From contig OY970368.1 of assembly GCA_963718615.1 (NCBI GenBank), positions 192,001 to 256,000 of the forward strand: DNA of 64,000 nucleotides, given 5' to 3'. The position numbers and the translations under genes were made by a program. The notes under the pieces were generated by a model, which saw only the letters and a program-made list of their open reading frames with translations, was not told where the DNA came from and did no database searches. Below are positions 8,005-52,869 of this stretch, piece after piece; within the stretch, counting starts at the first letter, position 1; every line of letters starts with the position of its first letter. The stretch is from an uncultured cyanobacterium (GTDB lineage Bacteria > Cyanobacteriota > Cyanobacteriia > PCC-9006 > JAAUQQ01).

Positions 8005-10947
8005 TTGGATGCCGTGACAGACGCTCAACGCCCCCCCCAGCCCGAGTCCAGCCCGGAAGCAAAATCCTATAAGGACACTATTAACCTGCTCAAAACCGAC
8101 TTCAACATGCGGGCCAATGCGACCCAGCGGGAGCCGGAGATTCAGCAGTTCTGGGCGGAGCACCAGATTTATGAGCGTCTGGCGGAAGATAATCCCGGTG
8201 AGACCTTCACGCTCCACGATGGCCCCCCCTACGCCAACGGCGCGCTCCACATGGGCCACGCCATGAACAAGGTGCTGAAGGACATCATCAACAAATATCA
8301 ACTGCTCCAGGGCAAAAAAGGTCGCTATATCCCCGGCTGGGACTGCCACGGGCTGCCCATTGAGCTGAAAGTGCTCCAGTCCATGAAGTCGAGCGAACGA
8401 CAGGCCCTGACCCCGATTACGCTGCGGCAGAAGGCAAAAGCCTGGGCGCTAGAGCAGGTGGAAGGCCAGAAAGCCAGCTTCAAGCGCTACGGGGTTTGGG
8501 GGGATTGGGACCATCCCTATCTGACGCTCCAGCCGGAATACGAAGCGGCGCAAATCGATGTGTTTGGGGAGATGTTCCTCAAGGGCTATATCTACCGGGG
8601 ACTCAAGCCGGTCCATTGGAGCCCCAGCTCGCGCACGGCCTTGGCGGAGGCAGAGCTGGAATATCCCGAGGGTCACACGTCCCAGAGTATCTATGTGGCG
8701 TTCCGACTGGCGACGATTCCCGATGGCTTGCAGATGGCGATCGGGGAGTATGTTCCCGATATGGGGTTAGCGATTTGGACGACGACGCCCTGGACGATTC
8801 CCGGTAACCTGGCCGTGGCGGTGAATGGCGACTTGACCTACACCGTTGTGGATACGGGGACCGATAATCTCAGCCAGGAAGCTCGGACCCAGGTTCCCAA
8901 GTATCTGATCGTCGCCGATGCGTTGGTCGAAGCCCTGAGTGAAAAGCTGGGCAGGCCCGTGCAGATTGTGGCGCGGGTCATGGGCAAGTCCTTGGAACAT
9001 GCCACGTATAAGCATCCGCTCTACGATCGCGAAAGCCCCGTGGTCATCGGCGGCGACTACATCACGACGGATTCCGGAACAGGATTGGTCCACACGGCTC
9101 CCGGCCATGGCCAGGATGACTATATCGTTGGTCAGCGCTACGGCTTGCCGATTCTGAGCCCGGTGGATGATGCGGGGAACTTGACCGCTGAGGCCGGTCC
9201 CTTTGCGGGATTGAATGTGCTGAAGGATGCCAATGACGCGATTATTCAGGCGCTGGATACAGTCGGGGCGCTGATCAAGCAAGAGGCCTACGGTCACCGC
9301 TATCCCTACGATTGGCGGACGAAGAAACCGACGATTTTCCGAGCGACAGAGCAGTGGTTCGCTTCGGTGGAAGGGTTCCGGGAGGCGGCGCTGCAGGCGA
9401 TCGCCGCAGTCACCTGGATTCCGGCAGCCGGAGAAAATCGGATTACGGCCATGGTGGGCGATCGCTCCGACTGGTGTATCTCCCGCCAGCGCACCTGGGG
9501 CGTTCCCATCCCGGTGTTCTACGACGAAGCCAGCCACGAAGCGCTGTTGAATGCAGAGACCATCGCCTATATCCGCGACCTGATCGCCGAGCATGGCTCC
9601 GATGTCTGGTGGGAACGGGAGGTAAACGAGCTCTTACCGGAAAAATACCGCGACAATGGCCGCACCTACCGCAAGGGCACGGACACCATGGATGTTTGGT
9701 TTGATTCTGGATCTTCGTGGAATGCGGTGGCCAAGCAGCGGGAAGGGATGCAATACCCGGTGGATTTGTATTTGGAAGGATCCGACCAGCATCGGGGTTG
9801 GTTCCAATCGAGTCTGCTGACCAGCGTCGCGGTCAATGGCTGCGCTCCCTACAAAACGGTCCTGACCCACGGCTTTGCCCTGGACGAAAAGGGCTACAAG
9901 ATGAGCAAATCCCTGGGCAATGTGGTTGACCCGGCGGAGATCATTAACGGTGGCAAAAACCAAAAGCAAAACCCACCCTACGGCGCGGATGTCCTACGGC
10001 TCTGGGTGTCGTCCGTGGACTATTCCAACGACGTGCCCATCGGCAACACGATCCTCAAGCAGTTGGCGGATGTCTATCGCAAGATCCGCAACACCGCCCG
10101 CTATTTAATCGGCAATCTGCACGACTTCGATCCCAAAACTGATGCCGTTGCCTACGACGATCTGCCGGAGCTCGATCGCTACATGCTCCACCGCATCACC
10201 GAGGTGTTTGCGGAAGTGGATGATGCCTATAAGACCTATCAGTTCTTCCGCTTCTTCCAGACGGTGCAGAATTTCTGCGTAGTGGACCTGTCCAATTTCT
10301 ATTTGGATATTGCCAAGGACCGGTTGTATATCAGCGCCCCCGATGCAGCACGGCGGCGCAGTTGCCAGACGGTGATGCAGATTGCCCTGGAGAATTTGGC
10401 GAAAGCCATTGCCCCGGTCCTTTCCCACATGGCGGAAGATATCTGGCAAAACCTACCCTACGCAACCGAGCACCCGTCGGTCTTTCAGTCCGGTTGGCTG
10501 AGCATCGACGAGGGCTGGAAAAAGCCGGAGTTGGCCCAATCTTGGCAGGTGATGCGTCAACTGCGGGATGAGGTCAATAAGGTGTTGGAGCAGGCGCGGA
10601 AGGATAAGGCGATCGGTTCTTCTCTAGAAGCTCAGTTGCTTTTACAGGTGAGCGACGAAAAGCTGCGTCAGCAACTCGCGGCCATGAACCCAGTGAGCCT
10701 TGCGGGCAATGGCGTGGATGAACTGCGCTATTTGTTTTTGGTGTCTGGGGTGAAGCTGGTGGATTCGGCGGAAACTTTGGCGGAGTTGGAGTACAAGGCG
10801 GAGGTGGATGGCTTTGTCATTGGGGTGGCGGATGCGGAGGGGAAAAAGTGCGATCGCTGCTGGAACTATTCCACAAAAGTTGGCGATTCAACCGAAGATC
10901 CGACGATTTGTGAGCGGTGTGTGGAGGCGTTGGCGGGGACCTTCTGA
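8005..10947 (+). CDS. ileS: Isoleucine--tRNA ligase (start may be GTG at 8014)
   Basis: HDGPPYANG-HMGH (HIGH), KMSKS, C-terminal CDRC...CERC zinc motif. Confidence 0.98.
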   Translation: MDAVTDAQRPPQPESSPEAKSYKDTINLLKTDFNMRANATQREPEIQQFWAEHQIYERLAEDNPGETFTLHDGPPYANGALHMGHAMNKVLKDIINKYQLLQGKKGRYIPGWDCHGLPIELKVLQSMKSSERQALTPITLRQKAKAWALEQVEGQKASFKRYGVWGDWDHPYLTLQPEYEAAQIDVFGEMFLKGYIYRGLKPVHWSPSSRTALAEAELEYPEGHTSQSIYVAFRLATIPDGLQMAIGEYVPDMGLAIWTTTPWTIPGNLAVAVNGDLTYTVVDTGTDNLSQEARTQVPKYLIVADALVEALSEKLGRPVQIVARVMGKSLEHATYKHPLYDRESPVVIGGDYITTDSGTGLVHTAPGHGQDDYIVGQRYGLPILSPVDDAGNLTAEAGPFAGLNVLKDANDAIIQALDTVGALIKQEAYGHRYPYDWRTKKPTIFRATEQWFASVEGFREAALQAIAAVTWIPAAGENRITAMVGDRSDWCISRQRTWGVPIPVFYDEASHEALLNAETIAYIRDLIAEHGSDVWWEREVNELLPEKYRDNGRTYRKGTDTMDVWFDSGSSWNAVAKQREGMQYPVDLYLEGSDQHRGWFQSSLLTSVAVNGCAPYKTVLTHGFALDEKGYKMSKSLGNVVDPAEIINGGKNQKQNPPYGADVLRLWVSSVDYSNDVPIGNTILKQLADVYRKIRNTARYLIGNLHDFDPKTDAVAYDDLPELDRYMLHRITEVFAEVDDAYKTYQFFRFFQTVQNFCVVDLSNFYLDIAKDRLYISAPDAARRRSCQTVMQIALENLAKAIAPVLSHMAEDIWQNLPYATEHPSVFQSGWLSIDEGWKKPELAQSWQVMRQLRDEVNKVLEQARKDKAIGSSLEAQLLLQVSDEKLRQQLAAMNPVSLAGNGVDELRYLFLVSGVKLVDSAETLAELEYKAEVDGFVIGVADAEGKKCDRCWNYSTKVGDSTEDPTICERCVEALAGTF

Positions 10948-10956
10948 CTCTTCCTA

Positions 10957-10990
10957 TCCCCCGCAGATCCCAATGGCCTGCGGGGGGGGG
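10957..10990. terminator. Hairpin after ileS, probably bidirectional terminator
   Basis: CCCCCGCAG...CTGCGGGGG inverted repeat between convergent genes. Confidence 0.55.
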
Positions 10991-11036
10991 AGCGCCCAAA
11001 GAAAAACTCTCAAAGAGATTCAGACCGCTGCCACCT

Positions 11037-12182
11037 CTAAGCCGTCTCCGCTACCGCACTGGCATGTTGCCCATTTCCCCAAGGACGCAGTTCGGTCAAA
11101 CGATACTCAATCCGCCCTTCCCCCGTCACCTGATTCATTTTGACCATTTCCTGAATCTTCGCCGTGTAGATAGTTTTGTTGAGCGTGATGTCGATGTGAC
11201 TGCCTAACACGCCATCCGCACACCTCCCCGAATAAGTCTTATTCTCAACCATATCCCGAATTTCAAACGTCTGACTGGTTGTGCTGGCAGAAAGCAAAGG
11301 CCCCTTAATCAAAAAATCCTCCGGTGCTTCCACCTCCATCCGCGTCACTGTGCCCAAAGCCCTCAGTGCTGTTTCAGAAGACAATCGGGCCACTCCACCC
11401 TTATTCTCCACTGGAGACCCCCATTCCAACTGCACATCAGTCTCAGCATCGACGATCGCCTGGAGGAACTTGCGATAACGCCCCGCACAACGCCGCTTCA
11501 GCTCCATCAGCAATTCCTGCAACTGCTCATCCTGGTCGCTGCCATTGAGCAACTGTATCAACGACTCCAGACTACTTTCTGCCAGAGGAACTTCAAACAA
11601 ATCTGGCTGTATCAAGGACGGCATAACCGCTAAGCGCAACCCAAAAGAACCGCGAAAGGTTGTTAGTATCGATAGCTGAGTCTGTTCAGTAATCTTTCCT
11701 GCAATTCTTCCGTAAGGGTTAGCTCGTCCCGCTTTCACCTCCCCAATAGCATCTAAAGTATCCTGAAACGTCGTCAGAATTGCCCCTAACCGTTTAGCTG
11801 GAGCCTCGACAGGGCTATATGTTGCTGCCTCAGAAAAGTAGAAATGCAGATTCAGGATGTCCCGTTCCTGTGCGCGAGCGAGGTACGCTGCGCTGATGAG
11901 GTCATTGAGAATTTCTGCTTCCGAACGCTGCTCCGCAACGGACAGGGAACGCACCACGTCGTACATGCGATCGGCAAAGTCCATCAAATCACGTTTTAAG
12001 GGCAGCAGCAGTACAAAACCCTCACTCTCCGCCTGCTCCTTCCGCCAGACTTCATAGTTCTCGAATTCCTGTCCAGCACCTTGATCTGCCTGTTTCTGCC
12101 ACTGCTGATGCCGCAGATAGTCCTTCACGATCTGCGGTTCCAGAGCTTCGAATTGTTCTATCGTCAACATCGGGGTGTTCAT
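11037..12182 (-). CDS. Hypothetical protein translationally coupled to the DUF4365 gene
   Basis: 381-aa ORF, ATGA overlap with the upstream gene, TFRGSFG motif. Confidence 0.8.
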   Translation of the reverse strand: MNTPMLTIEQFEALEPQIVKDYLRHQQWQKQADQGAGQEFENYEVWRKEQAESEGFVLLLPLKRDLMDFADRMYDVVRSLSVAEQRSEAEILNDLISAAYLARAQERDILNLHFYFSEAATYSPVEAPAKRLGAILTTFQDTLDAIGEVKAGRANPYGRIAGKITEQTQLSILTTFRGSFGLRLAVMPSLIQPDLFEVPLAESSLESLIQLLNGSDQDEQLQELLMELKRRCAGRYRKFLQAIVDAETDVQLEWGSPVENKGGVARLSSETALRALGTVTRMEVEAPEDFLIKGPLLSASTTSQTFEIRDMVENKTYSGRCADGVLGSHIDITLNKTIYTAKIQEMVKMNQVTGEGRIEYRLTELRPWGNGQHASAVAETA

Positions 12183-12700
12183 AGAGGCTGTGAGTTAGCA
12201 ATACGCTGCATCAGGGTTTGGACAGCTTCTGGAGTCAGTAGATTCTTGCGTGGAATGTGAACAGAAATCGTTCCTTTGTTATCAGTTGCAGCTTCTCCAG
12301 CCAACGAAAGCCAATAGGCACATTTTCGAATTTTGGTTTCCTCCTCCGTAATATCCAGCCAGTTCTCAACATCTGGCGGAACGAGCATAACAATCAGAAG
12401 CTGCGGAGTAGAGAGAACAGGGACTGCAGGCCAAGGGTGAATCAATCTCCTATAGTTTTTGACGGGAAGCGGAAAGCTGAGATAGTCTGCCCGTATAAGG
12501 CTGGAATTCGTGGTGCATTTTACCTGAGCATCAAATCGAGGCGACAGCATCCGCCCGACAGTGCCAGGAGCTTCCACGCCAATGTCAATACCTACATTAT
12601 CCATAGCCGTAGGTTTCCTGTGGATGCTGTAGCCTGCGGCCGTGACGATCGCTTCGAGGTAGGCATAGCTAAATTCTTCCTGCTGAGTGGTGATATGCAT
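12179..12700 (-). CDS. DUF4365 domain protein (PD-(D/E)XK nuclease-like)
   Basis: QEEFSYAY, D.VGID, AQVKCT, CAYWLSL.G. Confidence 0.85.
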   Translation of the reverse strand: MHITTQQEEFSYAYLEAIVTAAGYSIHRKPTAMDNVGIDIGVEAPGTVGRMLSPRFDAQVKCTTNSSLIRADYLSFPLPVKNYRRLIHPWPAVPVLSTPQLLIVMLVPPDVENWLDITEEETKIRKCAYWLSLAGEAATDNKGTISVHIPRKNLLTPEAVQTLMQRIANSQPL

Positions 12701-12789
12701 TCTTGAGGCTTAACAGCAATCTCGGCGATCGCACCATATGAAGGAGAAGGTCTGTCTACTATTATCATTAAGATTAGAATAGACAAGCT

Positions 12790-15618
12790 TTAAACAGTTA
12801 GTTTTTCCTGCTCCACCCAGCAGCGCATGAGCTCAACGACGAAGGTATAGCGGCCTTCGCTCAGGTGGATGACATCATGCCTTTGCAACAGGCTTAGGGC
12901 TTCGGTGACCTGAGCGCTTTCAAAATCTAGCTGTCTTGCTGCGAGCCTTTGCGCTAGCGCTGGGGCCGTGAGGCCGTTGGGATGTGGGCACAGCCCCTGG
13001 AGGATGGCGATTTGTTCGGCGGCGTGTTCTTCTTGGCATTGGCTCCAGACGCCGCTGAAGTAGGCGTTGCCGTCGCGGAAGAAGTCGGGGCTTTGGATGA
13101 TTTCTTGAACGTCGTTGAGGGTGAGGCGGGGTTCGATTTCCTGGCCTTCTTCGAAGCGTTGGCGGTTGAAGCGGCTGATGAGGCTGTGACAGATCAGTTG
13201 GATGAGGTAGGGTTGGCCGCCGGTGAGGGTGTAGATTTCGTGAATGGCGTCGCGATCGTAATCGAGCGGGAAGTCGTCGGTGGGGTTGGTGATCAGGCGT
13301 TCTGCGGCTTTTTCGCTGAGCACACCCACGGGTACGGCGGTGACGTTGCCAAACAGGGGGTTCCAGTAGTCTTGGGTCATTTCTTGCAAGGACGCAAGGC
13401 CCGCAAAGGCGAGGATAAACCAGGGGTAGGTGACGATCAGGCTGCGCCAGTATTCAATCAGGTAGGGGGCGATGATTTCCTGTTGGATTAAGCGTTTTTC
13501 TAGGATTTCAAATTCGTCGATGGTGATGATGTAGCGGGTTTGGTGGCGTTGTCGATCGGGGGATTGGTCGAGTTTTCTGAGGAAGCGATCGAGCGCGCTG
13601 TAAGGGTTGCGGTGTAGAAAGTTCTCTTCGTTGGGTTCTTCGAGTTCTGTGTTGTCGGGGAGGCTGTCGTGCAGGGCGGTGGCGAGGTTGTAGAGGAGTT
13701 CGCCGACGTTTTCGACCATGCCGACGCGTTGCAGGTTGAAGTCGATGATTTGGGTGTTTTGGCCGAGGTGTCCTTTTAGGTTTTGCAGGATGGAGGTTTT
13801 GCCCATGCGGCGGTGGCCGTAGAGGATGACGGAGGGGAGTTGGCCTTGGGGCATCCAGAGTTCTTCGAGGCGGCTGAGGATGTCTTCGCGTCCGACGAAA
13901 AGTTGGCCGCGCACGGGGGGGCCGACGACGTAGGGGTTGGCGATGGGGCTGAGGATTTGGGCTTGGCCGACGGCTCCGGCGGCGGTGGTGATGATTTCGC
14001 GCCATTGGTGGATGATGCGGTGGAGCAGTTTTTGTTCGGGGTAGCCGGGGGGGATGCGATCGGTGACGAATTGGTCGAGGGTTTGCAGGTCGGCGTCGGC
14101 GCGGGCGAGAGCGGCGAGTTGGTTGACGCGGCTGCTGGCGGTGGTGGCGATGCGGATTTCTTGGCTAATTTGGCCGAGGGTGGTGAGGACGCGGATGATG
14201 TTGGGGCGAATGTAGGTTTGAGAGGATACGAAGGCAGAACGTGAGGGACAAACTGCTGAAATTTGGTCCAACGAGTTTGCTTCCATAAAATTTTTAATGT
14301 CAGTCAATGAATTCCATAGCTCGTGATACCCTTCAAATTCTGAGAGAGCATGAATGTCAGATTCTAAATAGTTAGAAATCACAGAAATTTCATCTGGCAA
14401 GTCGAGAAAAAGAATCCTATAGAATATGGCAACAAGCCTAGTAGTGCCGTAGATTTCATCACCATGACTTCTTTTTGTGTTTTCTAAAGCACAAAATTTC
14501 TTTTCCTTCTTAAGCTCTCCTAATTTATATGGAAATGCCTTCAGTATTACCTGTATCCTAGTCGGTCGCATTAGTGAATATTCTTGGACTTGCTTTCCCA
14601 AAGAAACAATTCTTTCTTGAAAAGAGTTTTCTTGCAAAACAGAATATAGTTCTAATATAAAATTATCTACTTCGCTAAATATTTTTTCTAGCCATAACTC
14701 TTGTACGAGATCATGAGCGCCGCGCCTCTCCAGTAGAAGGCAGATTGAGTTGACATCTTGATTTAAGTTGATTTCTTTTAAGAAGCGATGAGTAGCTTCA
14801 TTCGTTCTAGGTACAACGATACGTGTGGGATGCTCGACAAAAAGATAGTCCCAGAATAATGGGTGTAGTCTGATATTAAAGAAAGAAAAGAAACCTAAAA
14901 GAATATATACGGGTACTTTCAATACTGGAAATACCGCATAAAGAGAATAAATGACAGCGCTCGAAATTACTGTAGAAAGAAAATTGGCCCAATGGCTCGT
15001 AGATATAATATCTAGACTTATTAACTTGAAAGATTCATCATGAAAGAATAAGCCACTACTCCAAAGAGTAACCATAATGGCACCGCTCAAGATGGCAGAT
15101 GTTTCTCCTCCAATAATTGATGTGACACTAAAAATATCACTCATTGCAAAAACTGAAAAAACCGGATGAATGAGCGTTAAAGCATGAAATATTCCAAAAA
15201 TGATTGTAAAGGTTGCTATTATAGATGCGTGATCGGAGGGTTTTGTCTCAACAGATGATTTGTATAAAATCCAGCTAGATAAGCATCCAATAGTGAACCC
15301 TGAAATAGTAGACTGGAAAGCAGAATATGGATTTTTTGATGCATAGCCAGCTATAGAGGCAGACAGAAATACAAGCAGCATGGATATTGTCCAACAGGTT
15401 CTTGCTGCGGGAATGTGCCATATTTGAGAAAGAACTTTCGTCCAGCTTGCCTCCCTGGCCCAAGATAAGTTTGTTGTTACGTCAATAAAATAACTTTGTA
15501 TGCTAATAGGACGAAAATAGCAACAGAATAAAAGGCGTAAATAATGAGAAGGATTGAGAATTTTTAGTGGTCGTGGTAGAAAAATATCCTGGCTCTTTAA
15601 TTCTCTCGTCATTTTCAT
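12790..15618 (-). CDS. Multi-TM N-terminus fused to a STAND-like P-loop ATPase with probable winged-helix C-terminus
   Basis: Several hydrophobic helices in the first ~250 aa; NPYVVGPPV, FVGRE, Walker A GHRRMGKTS, Walker B IITIDEFE, TGGQPYLIQL. Confidence 0.85.
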   Translation of the reverse strand: MKMTRELKSQDIFLPRPLKILNPSHYLRLLFCCYFRPISIQSYFIDVTTNLSWAREASWTKVLSQIWHIPAARTCWTISMLLVFLSASIAGYASKNPYSAFQSTISGFTIGCLSSWILYKSSVETKPSDHASIIATFTIIFGIFHALTLIHPVFSVFAMSDIFSVTSIIGGETSAILSGAIMVTLWSSGLFFHDESFKLISLDIISTSHWANFLSTVISSAVIYSLYAVFPVLKVPVYILLGFFSFFNIRLHPLFWDYLFVEHPTRIVVPRTNEATHRFLKEINLNQDVNSICLLLERRGAHDLVQELWLEKIFSEVDNFILELYSVLQENSFQERIVSLGKQVQEYSLMRPTRIQVILKAFPYKLGELKKEKKFCALENTKRSHGDEIYGTTRLVAIFYRILFLDLPDEISVISNYLESDIHALSEFEGYHELWNSLTDIKNFMEANSLDQISAVCPSRSAFVSSQTYIRPNIIRVLTTLGQISQEIRIATTASSRVNQLAALARADADLQTLDQFVTDRIPPGYPEQKLLHRIIHQWREIITTAAGAVGQAQILSPIANPYVVGPPVRGQLFVGREDILSRLEELWMPQGQLPSVILYGHRRMGKTSILQNLKGHLGQNTQIIDFNLQRVGMVENVGELLYNLATALHDSLPDNTELEEPNEENFLHRNPYSALDRFLRKLDQSPDRQRHQTRYIITIDEFEILEKRLIQQEIIAPYLIEYWRSLIVTYPWFILAFAGLASLQEMTQDYWNPLFGNVTAVPVGVLSEKAAERLITNPTDDFPLDYDRDAIHEIYTLTGGQPYLIQLICHSLISRFNRQRFEEGQEIEPRLTLNDVQEIIQSPDFFRDGNAYFSGVWSQCQEEHAAEQIAILQGLCPHPNGLTAPALAQRLAARQLDFESAQVTEALSLLQRHDVIHLSEGRYTFVVELMRCWVEQEKLTV

Positions 15619-15650
15619 TCCCAGCGTAATTTGCTTAACCTACACATGCT

Positions 15651-16004
15651 TCACTGGTGAACCACGATCGCCGCTCGGCTCAACTCTACATAAGAATTCT
15701 GCTCTAGCAACTCAACACATCGCTCCAGATTCTGCCGAAACAACTCCTCCAGCTCAGAATTCCTGACATTTCCCGTCGTCACCAGCAACAGCTTGAACGG
15801 CTGCCCAACCGTCAGGAAGGAATTCACAAAATCCACATCCTTTGTAATCACAACCCGTTCTTCCTGCATCGAAAGCTGATTGATAAAACCATCCGACGTT
15901 GCATTCTGGTCTGGCAAATCTCGCGTATGCAACACATCATATCCCTGCGTCGCTAACCACCGCGCCAGCCTCAGCGGAAGCTGTGCATCCACCAAAAACT
16001 TCAT
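15651..16004 (-). CDS. DUF5615 family PIN-like protein (putative toxin)
   Basis: MKFLVDAQLP, RVVITKD.DF; ATGA overlap with DUF433. Confidence 0.9.
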   Translation of the reverse strand: MKFLVDAQLPLRLARWLATQGYDVLHTRDLPDQNATSDGFINQLSMQEERVVITKDVDFVNSFLTVGQPFKLLLVTTGNVRNSELEELFRQNLERCVELLEQNSYVELSRAAIVVHQ

Positions 16005-16258
16005 GCCGCAATCCGATACACACTTTTCACCTGAGCCAACCTCGTCGCAAACAACAGTACCGCCGTAATATCATCAGCCTCCAAATCATCATAATCCTCC
16101 AAAATCTCCCCCCGATTCATCCCCGCCCCCAACAGCTCCAAAATCATCTCCACCGGATACCGCAACCCCCGAACACAGGGCTTCCCATGACAAATCTCGG
16201 GATTAATCGTAATGCGCTGAAGTAAATCAGAATTCATCATTGCCATTATCTCATCCAC
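16001..16258 (-). CDS. DUF433 domain protein (putative antitoxin)
   Basis: RITINPEICHGKPCVRGLR, EILEDY..LE. Confidence 0.92.
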   Translation of the reverse strand: MDEIMAMMNSDLLQRITINPEICHGKPCVRGLRYPVEMILELLGAGMNRGEILEDYDDLEADDITAVLLFATRLAQVKSVYRIAA

Positions 16259-16290
16259 CTAAAACACACAAACCCTGCTCAACATCCCCA

Positions 16291-16626
16291 TCAACCCACC
16301 GCAAACTCCGTAAACTGACGCTTAAACGGAGACTGAAACCCCAACACAATATCCATTTTGGCAACTCCCAAAGCCATCAATTCATCTGTAATATCAAACT
16401 CCGTCCCATTGTGCTGAATCCAAACCTTGTCTTTGTAAATATCAATGTGCAAAATACAGCCATAAACTCGCCGCTCCCCTTGCCAGCCCACATTGACAAG
16501 CTGATAATGATCCCCCTCTCCATCAAAAACTGCTTCAGATCGAATGCCCTTTTCCTCTGACTTCTCATCTCGATGATTCAAAATCACTGTCCGAATCGCC
16601 TTACGATACGTATCTAGCCGCTCCAT
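16291..16626 (-). CDS. xisI: XisI family protein
   Basis: HYQLVNVGW, GCILHIDI, KVWIQHNGTE, DIVLGF. Confidence 0.93.
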   Translation of the reverse strand: MERLDTYRKAIRTVILNHRDEKSEEKGIRSEAVFDGEGDHYQLVNVGWQGERRVYGCILHIDIYKDKVWIQHNGTEFDITDELMALGVAKMDIVLGFQSPFKRQFTEFAVG

Positions 16627-17030
16627 AACGTAATCTCCTCTTGCACAGAACTGTAAACAATCAACGGGATCTGATTCTGCTGAATCACAGCCTGGGTGAA
16701 TGGCTGCTGGAAAAAATCATTGTACGTATCCAAGGGGACTGCCAGGTACAGCTTACGATCAGGCTCCTGAGCCCCTAGCATTGTTCGGTAGCTGATGAAC
16801 TGCCCCACTGCTCCATGGAAACTGTAGACCGTAGATTTTTCCAGAAAACTCTTAATTTCTACCGCGATCTTTTCATCCTCTCGATCCGCAGCAACGACCC
16901 GATCTGCTGCCAAATCAATCTTCAGCTCAACCCGCTCCCAAGTGAGCCTGAGGGGATCCTCTACAATCCGCCACCCCTGCTTCTGAAGAGCTGTTTTAAC
17001 CGCATCATGAAAGAGGTCTTTTGCTGTCAT
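16614..17030 (-). CDS. xisH: XisH family protein (endonuclease-like fold)
   Basis: AKDLFHDAVKTAL, IDLAA, KIAVEIKSF, LYLAVP. Confidence 0.93.
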   Translation of the reverse strand: MTAKDLFHDAVKTALQKQGWRIVEDPLRLTWERVELKIDLAADRVVAADREDEKIAVEIKSFLEKSTVYSFHGAVGQFISYRTMLGAQEPDRKLYLAVPLDTYNDFFQQPFTQAVIQQNQIPLIVYSSVQEEITLWSG

Positions 17031-17038
17031 ACCAAATT

Positions 17039-17431
17039 CTACGCCACCTGCTCAACCAAATCATAGGGCTGAATCAAAACCTCCGCCGGAATCCCCAGAT
17101 GCCGATTCAGCCCCCGAATCATCTCCAGCGTCAGCCCCACCCGACGCCCCAACACCGCCTCAACCCACTCCGCTCCTCCCAACCAAACCTCCAAATCCCC
17201 CCGAGACAACCCTCGCGCCTCCAGATAATACAAAATCGCCTCCACCGGCTCAGGCAAAGGCATCTCGCAATGCTCCGCCTCATAGACCTCGACTAAGGTC
17301 ACCAACACCTCTAAGCGATTTCCCTCCGGTGTCCCCACAGGCGCATCAAACAATGCCTCGACTTCCTGCAACGCAGCCTGGTAGTCTTCCTCGGTTTTAA
17401 TCGGACGAATCTCAACCAACATAAGCCACAC
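17039..17431 (-). CDS. higA: HigA-type antitoxin (HTH)
   Basis: IRPIKTEEDY, LEVLVTLVEVYE, LTLEMIR, LGIPAEVLI; directly downstream of higB. Confidence 0.88.
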   Translation of the reverse strand: MWLMLVEIRPIKTEEDYQAALQEVEALFDAPVGTPEGNRLEVLVTLVEVYEAEHCEMPLPEPVEAILYYLEARGLSRGDLEVWLGGAEWVEAVLGRRVGLTLEMIRGLNRHLGIPAEVLIQPYDLVEQVA

Positions 17432-17432
17432 C

Positions 17433-17726
17433 TCAAATCGTCTCTACATCAACGTTGTCGTACTCGCGATGGGTTCCGACGAACCGAACAAAGATAATTC
17501 CGATGTCATATCGAACATGCACCACCAATCGATAATCATTACCTTTGATGTTAAAAACAACACGGTTATTACCCACAATGCTAGCGTTTCGGTACTTTGT
17601 CTTCACCTCAGTAGGCGTTTGCCATACCGCCCGCGCTGCTTCTGCGTACCACGCTAGCAGCGGTTGCTTCGCTTTTGGGTGAACTTCCCAAAACTGCCTC
17701 AGTGTACTTTTAGCAATAATTCTCAT
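17433..17726 (-). CDS. higB: HigB-type mRNA interferase toxin
   Basis: MRIIAKSTLRQFW, VFNIKGNDYRL, RFVGTH.EYD. Confidence 0.92.
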   Translation of the reverse strand: MRIIAKSTLRQFWEVHPKAKQPLLAWYAEAARAVWQTPTEVKTKYRNASIVGNNRVVFNIKGNDYRLVVHVRYDIGIIFVRFVGTHREYDNVDVETI

Positions 17727-18991
17727 CCCTGCGTTAGTTCCTCATAAAGCTTCGCCGCTGCGCGTTGGAGCGATCGCAAATTCCCCCGACTCTCCGCCCA
17801 CAACAACCGTTCCTGCTCCGCCGAACCCATAACCCCCGTTCCCGCCACCCCCTCCTGCCAAAACGCCATCACCTCCGCTTCCGTGAGGAGATTCACCCGC
17901 GTCGTTTGGCCATCAAAAAAATCCGCCAAGGGCGAAGACCGAGTGGGACTATCGGGAAACAGCTCCCGCAACTCTCGCTGACTGGCCACCACAAGCTGAA
18001 GCGGCGAATTGGGCAAATCCGCCATGCCCTTGAGCCAGTTGCGCGTCGGTTCTGGGAAAAACGCCTCATTGGACAACACATGAATTTCGTCAAGGCAGAG
18101 AACATAACGCCGCTGTTGTCGGAGCAGTTGCCGTTCTAGCCGATATTGCGTACAGGGCTCCAGTTCCAGCGCATCGCAAAGCCGCTCGAAAAAACTATGT
18201 TCGTCCCGGACGCGGTGCATATCGAGGTTGATGAACTCTGCGGGCGATCGCCCCAACCGCTCCGGCCCCAAACCACAAATCATCTGCAAAATCGAAGATT
18301 TACCGCTCTGGGGTGGCCCGATCAAGGCCCGACTGCTGCCCTTGCCCAACTCCTCAAAAATCTGTCGCAATAGCTCCTGGCGTCCCCAAAATTTAGCCGG
18401 ATCGGCGATCGCCCGTGTTTCTCCAAAGGGATTGGGCAATGCATTTTCCGTCTGAACGAGCTGCGGCAATCGCGCCAAAATCACCGCCATGGGAATCGCC
18501 CCGCCGCCGAGGGATTGGGAGCGATCGCGCGTAAACTTCACCATCCCACACACCCGCCCCGTGCGCAGATTCAGCAACGGCCCACCACTCATCCCCGGAC
18601 GCACCTGCCCCTGCTTAAACTTAATGAAATTCTGCCCCGTAATCCCTTCCACCTCAAAGGTTGCAGGCTCTCCCTCCGGAGTTTCATCAGAATAGCCATA
18701 GAGTGAAACGCGATCGCCTTGCAACACCGACAAATCCAGCTTGGCTGCGATGATCGCCTCTGCCTCCACCTCCAACAACGCCAAATCCGTCGTTTCACAA
18801 CGATCTAAAACCGTCGCCTTGCCCAGCTCTCTGCCATCCCACCGCAAAAATAAATCCGACCCCACATCGCGAACCACATGGGCACAGGTCAACACCCAAC
18901 CCGCACCCACCCAAAAGCCTGTCCCATGGCCGCTCTTGCCGGGACAATAAATCTTCACCGTATATCGTGGCAAATCCTCAGGAGCAATCAC
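17723..18991 (-). CDS. Trypsin-like serine peptidase fused to a STAND-like ATPase
   Basis: Triad LTCAHVV / DLALL / GMSGGP; NPFG...FWGR, Walker A GPPQSGKSS, Walker B VLCLDE. Confidence 0.9.
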   Translation of the reverse strand: MIAPEDLPRYTVKIYCPGKSGHGTGFWVGAGWVLTCAHVVRDVGSDLFLRWDGRELGKATVLDRCETTDLALLEVEAEAIIAAKLDLSVLQGDRVSLYGYSDETPEGEPATFEVEGITGQNFIKFKQGQVRPGMSGGPLLNLRTGRVCGMVKFTRDRSQSLGGGAIPMAVILARLPQLVQTENALPNPFGETRAIADPAKFWGRQELLRQIFEELGKGSSRALIGPPQSGKSSILQMICGLGPERLGRSPAEFINLDMHRVRDEHSFFERLCDALELEPCTQYRLERQLLRQQRRYVLCLDEIHVLSNEAFFPEPTRNWLKGMADLPNSPLQLVVASQRELRELFPDSPTRSSPLADFFDGQTTRVNLLTEAEVMAFWQEGVAGTGVMGSAEQERLLWAESRGNLRSLQRAAAKLYEELTQG

Positions 18992-19344
18992 GCGTTATCT
19001 TGCTGCTCCGGAGGACTTTGCGGCTTCTGGGGTTTGTGCTCCCACTCCATCGTGATTTCCAAATTGCTCTTGCCCTGGCCCCGCACCAGCGCCGCCACCA
19101 AACTCCCCTGCTCAATCTGAATTTCTAGACCAAACTTGACCGTCGCCTTGGTGGGGCGGGCTTTTTGCACGGGTTCCGCGATTGCCTTCAACACTCCCTC
19201 AATCGACTTCGCCACATCCTGAAAAGATAAATCGCCAAAGCTCACATCCTCCCGCCCCTGGGGCACCACCTCAATTTTGAACCGTGTACCGTCTTCGAGG
19301 GTGACGGGGATGGTTTCCGTGCGATCGCCATCAAAGGTCATCAA
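18988..19344 (-). CDS. CU044_2847 / Trypco1-like (trypsin co-occurring domain) protein
   Basis: GREDVS, P.KATVKFGLEI..EQG.L.A.LVRGQGKSNLEITMEW; GTGA overlap with the trypsin gene. Confidence 0.8.
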   Translation of the reverse strand: MMTFDGDRTETIPVTLEDGTRFKIEVVPQGREDVSFGDLSFQDVAKSIEGVLKAIAEPVQKARPTKATVKFGLEIQIEQGSLVAALVRGQGKSNLEITMEWEHKPQKPQSPPEQQDNA

Positions 19345-19415
19345 TAATACCCAATTGCTGATACCGAGACTAGTTTAAGGCATTCGCCTAGATCGAGGCA
19401 GTTCGATCACTCCCC

Positions 19416-19826
19416 CTAAACTTCTTGCCCCTCCTTCATGGTCAAATTAAACGCAGCCTCCGTTAGGACCGCCGAACGGTTGCCGCCATTCACCGCCACA
19501 TACCTATCCAATCGGGCCAAAATCTTCTTCGGCATTGTGATATTGATCCGCCGTACCTCGCCCGCAATTTCAGATGGATCGATTTCAATCAACATAAATA
19601 TTCCATCTCGATAATCTGGATTCTGCTGATGCGCCTCTATCGGTAAAGGATCAGGAATTGGCTCATCATCATTGAGCAAACCTTCCAAATGGAAGAGAAT
19701 GGCTTCCCGCGTCATCTTCAAAACTTCATCCATCGTTGAGCCAGCGGAAAAACAACCCGGAAGGTCAGGCACCGTCACACCGTAATCAGAATCTAGATCT
19801 TTATGAATAACGACTAAATAATGCAT
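19416..19826 (-). CDS. hicB: HicB antitoxin with C-terminal RHH domain
   Basis: YGVTVPDLPGCFSAG, RINITMP, NRSAVL. Confidence 0.92.
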   Translation of the reverse strand: MHYLVVIHKDLDSDYGVTVPDLPGCFSAGSTMDEVLKMTREAILFHLEGLLNDDEPIPDPLPIEAHQQNPDYRDGIFMLIEIDPSEIAGEVRRINITMPKKILARLDRYVAVNGGNRSAVLTEAAFNLTMKEGQEV

Positions 19827-19850
19827 ATGTCTTAGCGATCGCACTCTCTA

Positions 19851-20042
19851 CTAACGCTTTTGCCAATCCCATCCTGCCTGCTTGTAAATACTTCTAAGGG
19901 TCCCAACTGGGAAATCCTTCTTGGGATGAGGCACCGTAACCCGCTTACCGTCTTTTTTAAACTGTCGGTGACTGCCACCGCTAGTCTTGACCTCTTGCCA
20001 ATCCTCCTGCATCAGTCTGGCAATGATTTCCCGACTACTCAT
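19851..20042 (-). CDS. hicA: HicA toxin
   Basis: GSHRQFK, VTVPHPKKD, GTLRSIYKQAG. Confidence 0.92.
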   Translation of the reverse strand: MSSREIIARLMQEDWQEVKTSGGSHRQFKKDGKRVTVPHPKKDFPVGTLRSIYKQAGWDWQKR

Positions 20043-20121
20043 GCATTTCAACGATGAGGTATATACACACTATACACATAGAAACACATCTAGACTCGTG
20101 GGAGCTACCTTTGCATGGGTA

Positions 20122-20140
20122 CTACGACGATTCGTCGTAG
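20122..20140. promoter_or_regulatory. 19-bp palindrome upstream of hicA, candidate operator
   Basis: CTACGACGA-T-TCGTCGTAG. Confidence 0.35.
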
Positions 20141-20281
20141 AGTTTTACCGCTGCGCGTTGGACAGAACAAACAGTCCATGCCCGAAAAATTGTCCGTTGT
20201 CTAGCTATCGACTAGCATAAAGACAGATGAGTTTACAAAACTACATCTCATAACCTATCTACCTACCCCACCAGAATCGCC

Positions 20282-20470
20282 ATGTCATCAGAACAAGCCA
20301 TTCGCGAGAAAGTTGCCCTCATCCAGGAAAAACGGGCCATTCTCGTCAAACTCCTCGACCAACCCAACCTCGGCACCCTCCGGATTGACGTTAATCAAGC
20401 GATCGAAGAAGTCGATGACCTGATTGATGAATTTCAGCAAACCTTCCCCGACCAACCCTCCATTTCCTAG
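20282..20470 (+). CDS. Small hypothetical protein
   Basis: 62-aa helical ORF with LGTLRIDVNQA motif, which I recall from small cyanobacterial proteins. Confidence 0.7.
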   Translation: MSSEQAIREKVALIQEKRAILVKLLDQPNLGTLRIDVNQAIEEVDDLIDEFQQTFPDQPSIS

Positions 20471-20486
20471 ACCTCAAAACTAAGCT

Positions 20487-21578
20487 ATGGGCTGTGATTC
20501 CCCGCTCGACCTGGAATTTTTGCGCACCGAGATTCTCCCCCAGGCAGCGCAGCTCGATCGCGATCCCCTCGCCTTGGTTCAGGCGCTGCAATCCCTCGGG
20601 CGGCGATCGCTCCTCACCCTACGAATCGATCCTCAGTGGGGAGGACAAGGGCTAGGCGTTCAGGATTACTGGCAATTTCAGCGGGCGATCGCCCGAGCCT
20701 CGGGAGCCCTAGCTTTTTTGCAAATCCAGCACCAAAGCGCCGCCCAATTGATCGCCCAGGGACAAAACGACGCCCTCAAACAGCAATTTCTGCGACCCAT
20801 GGCCAGGGGGGAATCCCGGATTGGCGTGGGCTTTTCCCAATTGCGACGAGCGGGAGCACCGCTGCTACGGGCTGAGCCGGAGAATTCTGGGTATCGCCTC
20901 AACGGTACAATTCCCTGGGCCACGGGCTGGCAATGCTTTGAGCAGATTGTCGCCGGTGCAGCGCTCCCGGATGGGCAAGCGTTGCTCTGCCTAGTCCCCT
21001 TTGATTCGGTGCAGGCCAATCAGGGACAGATTCGTTGCTCCGCTCCCATGGTGTTGGTGGCCATGGCCAATACTCAAACCGTGGCATTAACCCTGGAGAA
21101 CTGGTGGGTCACTGGGGAGCAGGTGATTGACCACAAGCCTCCCCACTGGTTGCAGCAAGCCGATCGCAAAAATGTGCTGAGCGCGACAGCCTTTCCACTC
21201 GGCGCAGCCCGTGCGGCTCTGGACTTAATGGAAACGCTGATTGCAAAACGGGGGGTGGACGAACTTCAGGCGGATTGGCAGCGGCTAGACCAAGCGGAGC
21301 AAAATTGTTGCCGACGCATCTTGATTGCCCTAAACGATGACCCCAATGATCATCATGATCATTCCTTGAGCTTTGAGGAAAAAGTAGCCTTGCGGGGGGA
21401 GGCGATCGCCCTAGCGGGCCGGTGTGCCCAGGGGGCGATCGCGATCGCCAGCGGTGCCGCCAATGGCATCGATCATCCGGCCCAGCGGATCTATCGAGAG
21501 GTGCTCATGTTCACCGTCATGGGGCAAACGGAAGCCGCGATGGCCGCGACCGTTACGGCATTAGCGCAAGGCTATTAG
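20487..21578 (+). CDS. Acyl-CoA dehydrogenase family protein
   Basis: WGGQG, SGALAFLQ.QH, LNG.IPW.TG, HPAQRIYRE. Confidence 0.85.
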   Translation: MGCDSPLDLEFLRTEILPQAAQLDRDPLALVQALQSLGRRSLLTLRIDPQWGGQGLGVQDYWQFQRAIARASGALAFLQIQHQSAAQLIAQGQNDALKQQFLRPMARGESRIGVGFSQLRRAGAPLLRAEPENSGYRLNGTIPWATGWQCFEQIVAGAALPDGQALLCLVPFDSVQANQGQIRCSAPMVLVAMANTQTVALTLENWWVTGEQVIDHKPPHWLQQADRKNVLSATAFPLGAARAALDLMETLIAKRGVDELQADWQRLDQAEQNCCRRILIALNDDPNDHHDHSLSFEEKVALRGEAIALAGRCAQGAIAIASGAANGIDHPAQRIYREVLMFTVMGQTEAAMAATVTALAQGY

Positions 21579-51147: not shown

Positions 51148-52869
51148 ATGGCCACGCTCAACTTCAACACCACCAACGCCACCTTTCGCCAACTCCTCGG
51201 CAATGGGCTCACCTACCATGTCCCCCCCTTCCAGCGCGACTACTCCTGGGGCGAAGACGAATGGGACGACCTCTGGCAGGACATCACTGCTCTATTTGAA
51301 GCAGACGGTGACCCCGCCCACTACATGGGCTACCTAGTCTTACAGTCCTCCGACAGCAAGCATTTTGACATTATCGACGGCCAGCAACGACTCACCACCC
51401 TCAGCATCATGGCGCTGGCGGGCCTGTCCTATCTGAATGACCTCGTGGCCGCCGGACTTGATGCCGATAATAACCGCCGTCGCAAAGAGCAGCTTCAGAA
51501 CAGCTACATTGGCTACGTGGATCCGGTCAGTCTCGTGCCGCGCTCCAAGCTGTCGCTCAACCGCCACAATGACCGTTTCTACCAAACCTACCTAGTGCCC
51601 CTAGAACGCATTCCCCAGCGGGGCCTCAATGCCTCTGAGCACCAACTCCGCAAAGCTTTTAGTTGGTTTAAAGATCCTCTCAAAAGCCGGTTTGGCACAG
51701 AGCCCGACAGCGGTAAAACCTTTGCTGCGTTTCTCGACGCCCTGGTCGATAAGCTATTCTTCACCGTCATAACGGTCACCGACGAACTCAACGCCTTCAA
51801 AGTCTTTGAGACCCTTAATGCCCGAGGGGTGCGCCTCTCCTCCACCGATCTACTCAAAAATTACCTCTTCTCTCTGATCAGCACCGCAGATACCCACGAG
51901 ACCGAAGTTCAGAGCCTGGAAAACCTCTGGGAAAGAATTGTGGGTCTCTTGGGCAGCGAAAGCTTCCCTGAGTTTTTGCGAGTGTTTTGGAACAGTCGCC
52001 ATCGGCTAGTCCGCAAGACCGATTTATTTAAGGCCATTCGCCGCAACATCACCACCCGCGAGGGGGCTTTTACCCTAGTCCGCGATCTTGATTATTGCGC
52101 CGACATTTATGCTGCCCTCCGGGACGCTCAGGACGACCGCTGGAACCCTGATGAGCGTGAAGCCCTCCAGCAGCTAAAGATGTTTGGCGTTCGCCAGCCG
52201 CTATCCATGCTCTTGGCCTGCTACCAACGGTTCTTTTCTGTGGACCGACGCTCGTTTACTCGCATTCTTAGCGCGATCGCCGTGATCTCGCTGCGATACA
52301 ACGTTATCTGTAGCCTGCCCACCCACGAACAGGAGACCCTGTATAACGAAATTGCCTGGAAGGTCTCTGATAGCACCTACACCAGCTACTCCCAGATACG
52401 CGAGGCTCTCCAGCGCGTCTATCCAGACGACCCACAATTCAAAGGAGCCTTTGCTGAAAAAGAGCTACGCACCACCAACAGCCGCAATAAAAAGATCGTG
52501 CGTTACATCCTGTTTGCTCTTGAGAAGCAGCGTTCTGGCCAAGATTTTGACTTTGAAAGCGCCACTTACAACCTAGAGCACATTCTGCCCGAGCATCCCT
52601 CCGAGGATTGGGCTTACATTGAAGAAGCCAAACAAAACCGGCTGATCTATCGTCTGGGTAACATAACGCCCCTCGAAACAGCCCGCAATCGAGATTTAGG
52701 CAACGGTGACTATGCAACCAAGCGAGCTGCCTATCAGCGGAGCGACTTTCAGATGACCCAAGCCGTGGCCGAACGCTACGACACCTGGGATGAACAAAAA
52801 ATTGAGGCTCGGCAGAAACACATGGGCGATGTAGCTGCTAGCATTTGGCGGATTGATTTTGGCGATTAA
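51148..52869 (+). CDS. DUF262 + DUF1524 (GmrSD-like) HNH nuclease
   Basis: VP.FQRDYSW, IDGQQRLTT, FETLNARG; EHILP...LGN...N. Confidence 0.9.
   Translation: MATLNFNTTNATFRQLLGNGLTYHVPPFQRDYSWGEDEWDDLWQDITALFEADGDPAHYMGYLVLQSSDSKHFDIIDGQQRLTTLSIMALAGLSYLNDLVAAGLDADNNRRRKEQLQNSYIGYVDPVSLVPRSKLSLNRHNDRFYQTYLVPLERIPQRGLNASEHQLRKAFSWFKDPLKSRFGTEPDSGKTFAAFLDALVDKLFFTVITVTDELNAFKVFETLNARGVRLSSTDLLKNYLFSLISTADTHETEVQSLENLWERIVGLLGSESFPEFLRVFWNSRHRLVRKTDLFKAIRRNITTREGAFTLVRDLDYCADIYAALRDAQDDRWNPDEREALQQLKMFGVRQPLSMLLACYQRFFSVDRRSFTRILSAIAVISLRYNVICSLPTHEQETLYNEIAWKVSDSTYTSYSQIREALQRVYPDDPQFKGAFAEKELRTTNSRNKKIVRYILFALEKQRSGQDFDFESATYNLEHILPEHPSEDWAYIEEAKQNRLIYRLGNITPLETARNRDLGNGDYATKRAAYQRSDFQMTQAVAERYDTWDEQKIEARQKHMGDVAASIWRIDFGD

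Follow-up and report, generated by a model that had tools for sequence, protein, structure and literature searches.

The question raised by this locus is how thirteen genes, most of them of toxin-antitoxin (TA) or candidate defence families, came to lie head to tail on one strand next to ileS, the gene for isoleucyl-tRNA synthetase (IleRS), and whether they act as one system. The genes occupy positions 11037-20051 on the minus strand of the window, which is the whole stretch of 64,000 nucleotides analysed here; NCBIfam matches across it point to a cyanobacterium, and the genome is a single contig of 6.096 Mb. In transcription order they are hicA (ATG at 20042), hicB, a Trypco1 gene, a gene for a trypsin-like protease fused to an ATPase, higB, higA, xisH, xisI, genes of the DUF433 and DUF5615 families, a gene for a 942-aa ATPase, a DUF4365 gene, and a gene for its 381-aa partner. 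They fall into seven modules, namely, hicAB, Trypco1 with the trypsin-ATPase, higBA, xisHI, DUF433 with DUF5615, the 942-aa ATPase, and DUF4365 with its partner. The array is probably a chromosomal defence/TA island in which these self-contained modules follow one another head to tail next to ileS, at a point where synteny breaks, having been assembled piecemeal from different sources, and not one pathway. Seven modules are found within 9 kb, and the content varies with respect to related genomes. The activities attributed below to the modules, as well as the course of their transcription, are predictions made from sequence.

The basic architecture had been described by a first-pass annotation as thirteen co-oriented minus-strand genes with all gaps below 100 bp and four (A/G)TGA overlaps, and it is borne out by the ORF listing and translations. 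The four overlaps lie exactly at the coordinates given earlier, 18988-18991 (GTGA) and 17723-17726, 16001-16004, and 12179-12182 (ATGA), and the overlap of xisH with xisI brings the overlapping junctions to five (Table 1). Three of the 4-nt overlaps are found within a pair (Trypco1/protease, DUF433/DUF5615, and DUF4365/partner); the fourth is found between modules, where the stop of the protease-ATPase gene overlaps the ATG of higB. The longest-ORF starts of hicB, Trypco1, higA, and DUF433 differ from those of the deposited proteins; the likely in-frame ATG starts of these four genes make the gaps 3-21 nt wider, as estimated from the translations, and all are still below 100 nt. The names proposed for the genes agree with the Pfam family in eleven of the thirteen proteins, higA is recognized through the PADLOC profile PD-Lambda-2_B, and the gene left as hypothetical can now be named as a DUF4365 partner from its PDC-M02B and PDC-M63B matches; PADLOC profiles match six of the thirteen proteins. 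The array had also been placed behind ileS. It does adjoin ileS, but this gene is on the plus strand and convergent, with the 3′ ends facing, and the array is not its same-direction continuation. On the other side, a conserved 62-aa ORF and an acyl-CoA dehydrogenase-like (ACAD) gene are encoded divergently on the plus strand; guaA and cbiD are further flanking genes.

Table 1. Features of the array and its borders, in transcription order of the minus strand. Positions are those of the window; GC3, G+C content at third codon positions; negative gaps are overlaps.
Feature	Position	Strand	GC3	Gap to next gene (nt)	Basis and remarks
62-aa ORF	20282-20470	+			upstream of ACAD-like gene; no family assignment
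Candidate hicA promoter/operator region	20052-20281				230 nt; sole sizeable intergenic region; shared with the divergent 62-aa ORF/ACAD genes
hicA, toxin	19851-20042	-	0.54	6	63 aa from ATG 20042 (deposited form); ORF reaches TTG 20051; Pfam HicA_toxin E 3.7e-18; GSH motif in translation
hicB, antitoxin	19416-19844	-	0.48	71	Pfam HicB_lk_antitox E 2.3e-44, full profile; C-terminal ribbon-helix-helix, RHH_1 weak, E 0.005
Trypco1/"Pepco", small putative effector	18988-19344	-	0.68	-4	Pfam Trypco1 E 2.4e-15; NCBIfam CU044_2847 E 7.2e-18
Trypsin-like protease fused to P-loop ATPase	17723-18991	-	0.64	-4	422 aa; Trypsin_2 E 7.3e-16, AAA_22 E 2.1e-8, nSTAND1 E 1.5e-6, all above Pfam cut-offs
higB, toxin	17433-17726	-	0.47	1	Pfam HigB_toxin E 3.5e-32; PADLOC PD-Lambda-2_A E 8.7e-45; ATG overlaps protease-ATPase stop (ATGA)
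higA-like antitoxin, short form without peptidase domain	17039-17431	-	0.68	8	PADLOC PD-Lambda-2_B E 4.5e-32, profile positions 3-120 of 402
xisH	16614-17030	-	0.55	-13	Pfam XisH E 2.7e-55, full length
xisI	16291-16626	-	0.46	32	Pfam XisI E 2.4e-42, full length; 13-nt overlap with xisH
DUF433 protein, putative antitoxin	16001-16258	-	0.57	-4	Pfam DUF433 E 3.2e-24
DUF5615/Mut7-C/PIN-like protein, putative RNase toxin	15651-16004	-	0.61	32	DUF5615 E 1.1e-25, Mut7-C E 3e-8, PIN_10 E 7.3e-7
942-aa ATPase gene, N-terminal 467 codons	14218-15618	-	0.31		hydrophobic helices and soluble region of no known family (change point, hydropathy)
942-aa ATPase gene, C-terminal half	12790-14217	-	0.74	89	widespread P-loop ATPase module; ATPase_2 E 1.1e-6, AAA_16 E 1.3e-6
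DUF4365 nuclease-like protein (PDC-M02A)	12179-12700	-	0.48	-4	Pfam DUF4365 E 4e-22; PADLOC PDC-M02A E 5.7e-49, full length
381-aa DUF4365 partner	11037-12182	-	0.57		PADLOC PDC-M02B E 8.1e-18 (residues 1-98 only); PDC-M63B E 6e-17 (residues 106-364)
Gap between convergent ileS and last island gene	10948-11036				89 nt; 9-bp GC-rich hairpin CCCCCGCAG...CTGCGGGGG; fold -18.3 kcal/mol, z -1.39

The tight packing is genuine, and for genes without a functional relation it is unusual. Crude gene calling across the genome gave 5702 ORFs, which form 3529 runs of same-strand genes with gaps below 100 nt, and only two of these runs reach 12 genes, that is, the nif operon (17) and the island. The latter was scored as 12, as an overlapping spurious ORF had displaced hicA, and counts 13 with it; a 9-gene run in the same call is part of the ribosomal protein cluster. 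Tight co-oriented junctions make up 2173 of the 5701 adjacencies of the genome (0.38), and the chance that six independent inter-module junctions are all tight is about 0.003; plain co-orientation is found in 3472 of the adjacencies (0.61). Replication-strand bias was considered as a cause of the co-orientation and rejected, the plus-strand share being 0.47-0.56 in all 500-kb bins and the skew weak.

The composition of the array is a mosaic. GC3 changes from module to module (Table 1), and in the flanking genes it is 0.73 (ileS), 0.65 (ACAD), 0.60 (guaA), and 0.68 (cbiD). A change is also found inside the gene of the 942-aa ATPase, for which a two-segment model gives a change point at codon 467 (window position ~14217). 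A search of 1.84 billion representative proteins returned 6072 matches to this protein at E <= 1e-3, a large homologous family. In 139 of the 150 best matches, the best-aligned stretch begins no earlier than query residue 374, mostly at 420-480 (most of the matches begin within 374-560), and only 11 extend further into the N-terminal part. The hydrophobic helices are within the first 250 residues. The N-terminal 467 residues have no Pfam match and gave no match at E <= 1e-6 in 400 other cyanobacterial genomes and none in the genome contigs; a protein-atlas search with this half returned "hypothetical protein" clusters only (best 0.92). Because the GC3 switch coincides with the point at which 139 of the 150 best homologues begin, a swap of the N-terminal module at a domain boundary is suggested. 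Most simply, a native ATPase module would recently have gained a foreign low-GC N-terminal module by recombination at this boundary, and the product would be a P-loop ATPase, anchored in the membrane, with an N-terminal half that came from a low-GC source. The sharp switch would then be a clear trace of the exchange of an N-terminal module in a defence ATPase. A relic of the C-terminal part is found in G003, a genome of the same family (contig C123, locus positions 9956-10462), where 361 nt are 86% identical and aa 761-935 are matched at 70% protein identity with no intact ORF, which points to the decay of defence genes of this kind within the lineage.

The genomes for comparison comprised seven of the same family (IleRS 79-87% identical), none of them of the same genus, and one of the same class (G023). 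G003 and G001 keep the order of pdhA, a dnaJ-like gene, two ORFs, and ileS, and G002 keeps part of it. The loci compared around ileS in G003, G002, G023, and G001 encode neither ACAD nor GuaA nor any of the 13 island proteins. In the DNA downstream of ileS in G003, G002, and G023, 25 ORFs were scanned. G003 carries there genes for TPR proteins, Uma2, and SBP and an AIR carboxylase-like gene; G002 carries genes for carbonic anhydrase, a Macro-domain protein, fructosamine kinase, ThiF, and Uma2; G023 carries ylxR-infB, a DDE transposase gene, and one for an SMC-like ATPase. Beyond the opposite end of the array, the 62-aa ORF shares 84-86% identity with its counterparts in G001 and G003 and 68-69% with those in G004 and G006, and in the relatives it is preceded by a pentapeptide-repeat gene whose orthologue here lies at 1.095 Mb. 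ACAD follows the 62-aa ORF only in G004 and G006, at 48-51% identity, being far less conserved than the ORF itself, and guaA lies elsewhere. As the ileS side and the 62-aa-ORF side each have different partners in the relatives, the island is at the junction of two synteny blocks, exactly where synteny with the same-family genomes stops. The first-pass annotation had proposed to compare the interval from ileS to ACAD in related genomes; among those compared, such an interval is present only in this one. It had further taken the locus for an accretion hotspot. Of this proposal, the conflict modules of differing composition at a synteny break, partly kept in relatives, are supported, but not a hotspot shared with them, since the genes behind ileS in G003, G002, and G023 are unrelated and mostly of non-TA type.

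Island DNA is represented in five same-family genomes only by short pieces (the ATPase relic of G003 and weak xisI-like and ATPase-like pieces). Closer relatives are known only as single, low-depth public contigs from other runs (X1, X2, X4, and X5). From X1, one contig matches 14185-16118 at 87% identity and contains the N-terminal half of the ATPase gene, DUF5615, and the start of DUF433; 17073-17771, with higA, higB, and the end of the protease gene, is matched at 93%. An X1 contig of 1750 nt matches 18461-19346 at 93%, and its other 858 nt, beyond the Trypco1 start, are unlike the window. Contigs from X2 and X4 match 17210-17908 at 91% and 18531-19057 at 92%, respectively. Coverage in the four runs is next to nil for 11072-12973 (PDC-M02) and 19314-21215 (hicAB and ACAD), which is not taken as absence. 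The search of protein clusters found six of ten island proteins, all as singletons, the other four giving no match with the start codons used; the collection contains no relative at >=90% and is uninformative on presence or absence. The ATPase|DUF5615 and higB|protease junctions, both between modules, are common to the relatives at 87-93% identity and consequently predate this strain, and the head of the array is, judging from the X1 contig, different in at least one relative. Piecemeal assembly is supported by the GC3 mosaic, by the synteny break, and by this divergence of a relative's contig just upstream of Trypco1.

Some observations weigh against the piecemeal assembly of independent modules. 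The shared junctions mean that much of the stack is apparently older than the strain and could have arrived en bloc. The differences in composition can equally reflect amino-acid content or expression level. The ATPase matches of the 942-aa protein fall below the curated Pfam cut-offs, although just so (ATPase_2 29.1 bits with a cut-off of 33.2; AAA_16 29.4 bits with a cut-off of 32.6). The ATGA overlap of the protease-ATPase gene with higB suggests translational coupling of two supposedly independent modules. Against the promoters predicted for the array, promoter-like sites are no more frequent than in shuffles (10 versus 8.8 +/- 3.2), and terminator-like sites show no excess either (9 versus 11.2 +/- 3.3).

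The first of these points leads to a somewhat unlikely alternative, in which the whole 9-kb stack, or its core at 12974-19346, was built in another genome and entered at the ileS breakpoint in a single transfer by homologous or illegitimate recombination. That core segments with the same junctions occur at 87-93% in contigs of at least two other runs agrees with such a transfer, and a signature of repeated local insertion is lacking: the window ORFs scanned with Pfam and NCBIfam revealed neither an integrase nor a transposase family, no tRNA or tmRNA was found in the window, and no insertion-site signature emerged from the repeat search, which gave only chance-level families and the cyanobacterial GCGATCGC palindrome, or from the junction folds. 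However, GC3 differs strongly between neighbouring modules and even inside one gene, the X1 contig diverges at the Trypco1 end, and the 86%-identical relic in G003 indicates that the C-terminal part of the ATPase is native to the lineage.

A second alternative, which is unlikely as well, is a true 13-gene operon with a single HicB-repressed promoter upstream of hicA, in which hicAB would be the master switch that de-represses the whole stack when HicB is lost; transcription of all genes from the hicAB promoter had been suggested as a possibility by the first-pass annotation. In its favour, all 12 gaps are below 100 nt with five overlapping junctions, and only the nif operon is a run of this length or longer. 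The array gaps contain none of the five terminator-like sites on the minus strand, so that read-through from the hicA side is possible; the hairpin in the gap before ileS is the first strong one after the last gene, and we infer a putative terminator there. The only long intergenic region is upstream of hicA. It contains GTGTATA twice at 20077-20062, overlapping the -10-like strings TATAGT/TATATA 10-30 nt before the hicA ATG, and, between hicA and the 62-aa ORF, a perfect 9+9 palindrome, CTACGACGA-A-TCGTCGTAG, at 20139-20121. These repeats and the palindrome are plausible candidate HicB operators and equally possible sites for the divergent genes. A 22-gene unit with a TA pair has been reported in Synechocystis (PMC4963859). 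Against a single operon, type II TA pairs are normally driven by autoregulated promoters of their own, an inverted repeat and -10-like strings are found in the AT-rich 89-nt gap preceding DUF4365, and a relative with different DNA upstream of Trypco1 has kept the downstream genes, which therefore cannot depend there on this hicAB promoter. The preferred model, which belongs to the piecemeal island, is that transcription most likely starts upstream of hicA and reads through, with internal promoters, for example, in the gap before DUF4365, probably adding to it.

It may be asked whether such stacking is a rule in this genome, as the first-pass annotation had supposed that two-gene modules are inserted in register. 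The 942-aa ATPase stands alone, and not all modules are two-gene units. A paralogue survey covered 93 ORFs annotated around 12 loci. A second DUF433-DUF5615 pair (2303693-2304294 in the genome) lies between cas7 and cas1 of a type I-C cas operon, in the direction of that operon and with a 4-nt overlap; a 99-aa unassigned ORF follows it where cas4 would be expected. The two other higBA pairs of the genome are found behind small same-direction ORFs of 88 and 92 aa, beside leuA-like and leuCD-like genes (HMGL-like and aconitase-family, respectively), and the small ORF with higBA may be a three-gene form. Another xisHI pair is co-directional between DUF4351 and Uma2 genes, and one xisI is directly behind a TPR gene. 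On the contrary, three of the five complete xisHI pairs elsewhere have opposite-strand neighbours; thus, insertion in register does not hold as a general rule. The data support neither a hotspot common to the relatives nor a mechanism of directional insertion. The embedding of TA pairs in putatively transcribed units is common in this genome, and this matches the report on Synechocystis sp. PCC 6803, in which the hox operon contains a TA pair and a transcript of 22 genes contains a PemK pair (PMC4963859). In both cases cyanobacterial type II TA pairs are co-directional in operons (a putative one in the island), in Synechocystis transcribed without a start site of their own, but the neighbours in the island are other conflict modules and not hydrogenase or island genes.

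Retention could explain co-orientation in another way. In this quite unlikely scheme, the array would be a promoter-sharing immune operon without integrase, in which modules are kept only if they are co-directional behind the stop of a transcribed gene and HicB at the head gates the downstream effectors. The overlap of the higB ATG with the stop of the protease-ATPase gene and the DUF433-DUF5615 pair in the type I-C cas operon would fit retention behind a stop. If the scheme were true, six further systems would be armed together as soon as infection led to the loss of a single labile antitoxin.

Capture of cassettes in one orientation by an integron-like or other site-specific mechanism is highly improbable and largely refuted: the co-oriented, tight array of small defence/TA units recalls sedentary chromosomal integrons (bioRxiv 10.1101/2024.07.02.601686), and an upstream promoter with weak internal TA promoters is possible in both, but the window ORFs scanned contain no integrase or recombinase family, the repeat search revealed no repeated junction motif, four of the six inter-module gaps are <=32 nt and too short for attC, the folds of the gaps of 71 and 89 nt and of two short ones do not exceed those of shuffles (z -0.72, 0.12, 0.20, and 0.96), and three of the five complete xisHI pairs elsewhere in the genome lie between opposite-strand genes. 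With no integrase, repeated junction motif, or attC-like fold, an integron-like mechanism is not supported, and the earlier statement that integrases, transposases, and repeated attC-like sites are lacking stands after ORF scans, repeat search, and junction folding. The island differs from the integrons of that report in having no intI, attI/attC, or repeated junctions and in containing modules up to 2.8 kb among pairs that overlap by 4 nt.

Within the piecemeal island, the modules can be described one by one. At the head, adjacent genes encode a HicA_toxin protein and then HicB with its weak RHH_1 match. HicA would be an RNase toxin restrained by HicB, and HicB probably represses its own promoter.

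The xisHI pair is present in a genome with six copies of xisH and ten of xisI. XisH and XisI have a role in the excision of the fdxN element. Here, XisH may be a nuclease-fold protein acting with XisI. The next pair consists of DUF433 and then the overlapping DUF5615 gene (ATGA), a family combination that we take to be a TA pair, in which the DUF5615 PIN-like RNase would be restrained by DUF433.

The higBA pair has the HigB_toxin gene first and the HigA-like gene second, and HigB would be a ribosome-dependent RNase restrained by HigA. A Pfam search with HigA gave no match at E <= 0.05. Membership of this pair in PD-lambda-2 was considered. That system consists of three genes, namely, a HigB-like gene, a HigA-like gene fused to a C-terminal peptidase, and a third, P4-antitoxin-like gene (PMC9519451). 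The island HigB and the start of the HigA-like protein match the PADLOC models strongly, as in the E. coli system (PMC9519451), but the second protein has 130 aa, against a profile of 402 positions, and no peptidase, and the following gene is xisH, with no third gene. Without the C-terminal peptidase and the third gene, the pair is regarded as an ordinary higBA pair.

The Trypco1 and Trypsin_2 genes are adjacent and overlap by 4 nt. The name Trypco1 was given to a gene found together with trypsin-like peptidases in NTPase conflict systems (PMC7159879). In Streptomyces, Pepco is reported to form beta-barrel oligomers and to become toxic once the neighbouring protease-Avs4 removes a charged/proline-rich C-terminal tail of ~2 kDa located after a conserved Ile (bioRxiv 10.1101/2025.11.14.688446). 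The island protein ends in ...NLEI|TMEWEHKPQKPQSPPEQQDNA, where the Ile is I97 by the TTG start and the 21 aa behind it form a tail in which Pro and charged residues abound; Ile and tail agree with the published description of Pepco. Island Trypco1 would be a latent pore-forming effector, freed when the adjacent trypsin-ATPase cuts off its C-terminal tail. The module resembles the known Pepco-protease modules in that Trypco1 is directly upstream of, and overlaps, a protease-NTPase fusion gene and has the Ile followed by a ~2-kDa tail. It differs in that the protease is joined only to a short P-loop ATPase, without the TPR or other sensor region of the studied Avs4 homologue.

The protease-ATPase contains the strings TCAHV, DLALL, and GMSGGP and the Walker-like GPPQSGKS and LCLDE. 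Its best match among 400 cyanobacterial genomes is 42-50% identical, none of the seven same-family genomes has one, and no related locus was found in the genome and metagenome contigs searched. In a search of 401 cyanobacterial genomes, the ATPase half matches stand-alone proteins of 329-361 aa, aligned up to residues 417-420 of 422, and the end of the protein is therefore natural. Truncation of a longer STAND gene by insertion of higBA was ruled out, as these stand-alone homologues end at the same point.

The last module would combine a DUF4365 nuclease with a nucleic-acid-binding partner in the candidate system PDC-M02. DUF4365 is also the nuclease domain of short-Argonaute SPARDA systems (PMC10810196); the island differs from SPARDA in that it has no Argonaute. 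PDC-M02A is matched in full length and followed by an overlapping partner gene, as in the PADLOC system, but the partner resembles PDC-M02B only in its first 98 residues and PDC-M63B in the remainder. The partner has 20 homologues of 29-49% identity (nearest 49%), all unnamed except for one CheY-like label. Neither these matches nor those of the protease-ATPase include a distant copy of a whole module. An AlphaFold model built from the homologue alignment (pLDDT 81, pTM 0.69) has a C-terminal OB-like barrel at residues 285-373 with matches to SilF, SSB, and RPA (Z 7-8.4, the range of common fold arrangements), and the N-terminal domain resembles PDB 1whz (Z 7.0). A Foldseek search against the PDB gave no match at E <= 0.001, and the nucleic-acid-binding role suggested by the model is only a lead.

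Defence islands were reportedly described by Makarova and colleagues in 2011 as clusters of TA and anti-phage systems. The present island likewise clusters unrelated TA and candidate defence modules, has variable content between relatives, and breaks synteny among housekeeping genes. It differs in its extreme packing and co-orientation and in that no mobile-element genes and no restriction-modification or CRISPR component are found within the stack. It is an exceptionally compact example of an already known type and does not overturn current views, as each of its elements has a published counterpart in defence islands, defence arrays borne by integrons, TA pairs within long transcripts of cyanobacteria, Pepco modules, or the PADLOC candidates. 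As seven conflict modules on one strand with no mobile-element clutter, it represents a compact natural test bed. It includes uncharacterised modules, that is, xisHI outside the context of heterocyst excision, DUF433-DUF5615, PDC-M02, and a minimal Pepco-protease-ATPase, and it would permit a direct test of whether cyanobacterial TA/defence genes are expressed by read-through from a TA promoter.

Two further observations concern other parts of the genome and of the window. At 1805624-1808568 in the genome, eight co-oriented overlapping ORFs of 85-166 aa form one of the tightest runs and have no Pfam match at E <= 1e-5. The window itself also carries a GmrSD-type restriction endonuclease gene and a gene for a CHAT-domain protein fused to periplasmic-binding-protein domains (51148-52869 and 59983-62571).

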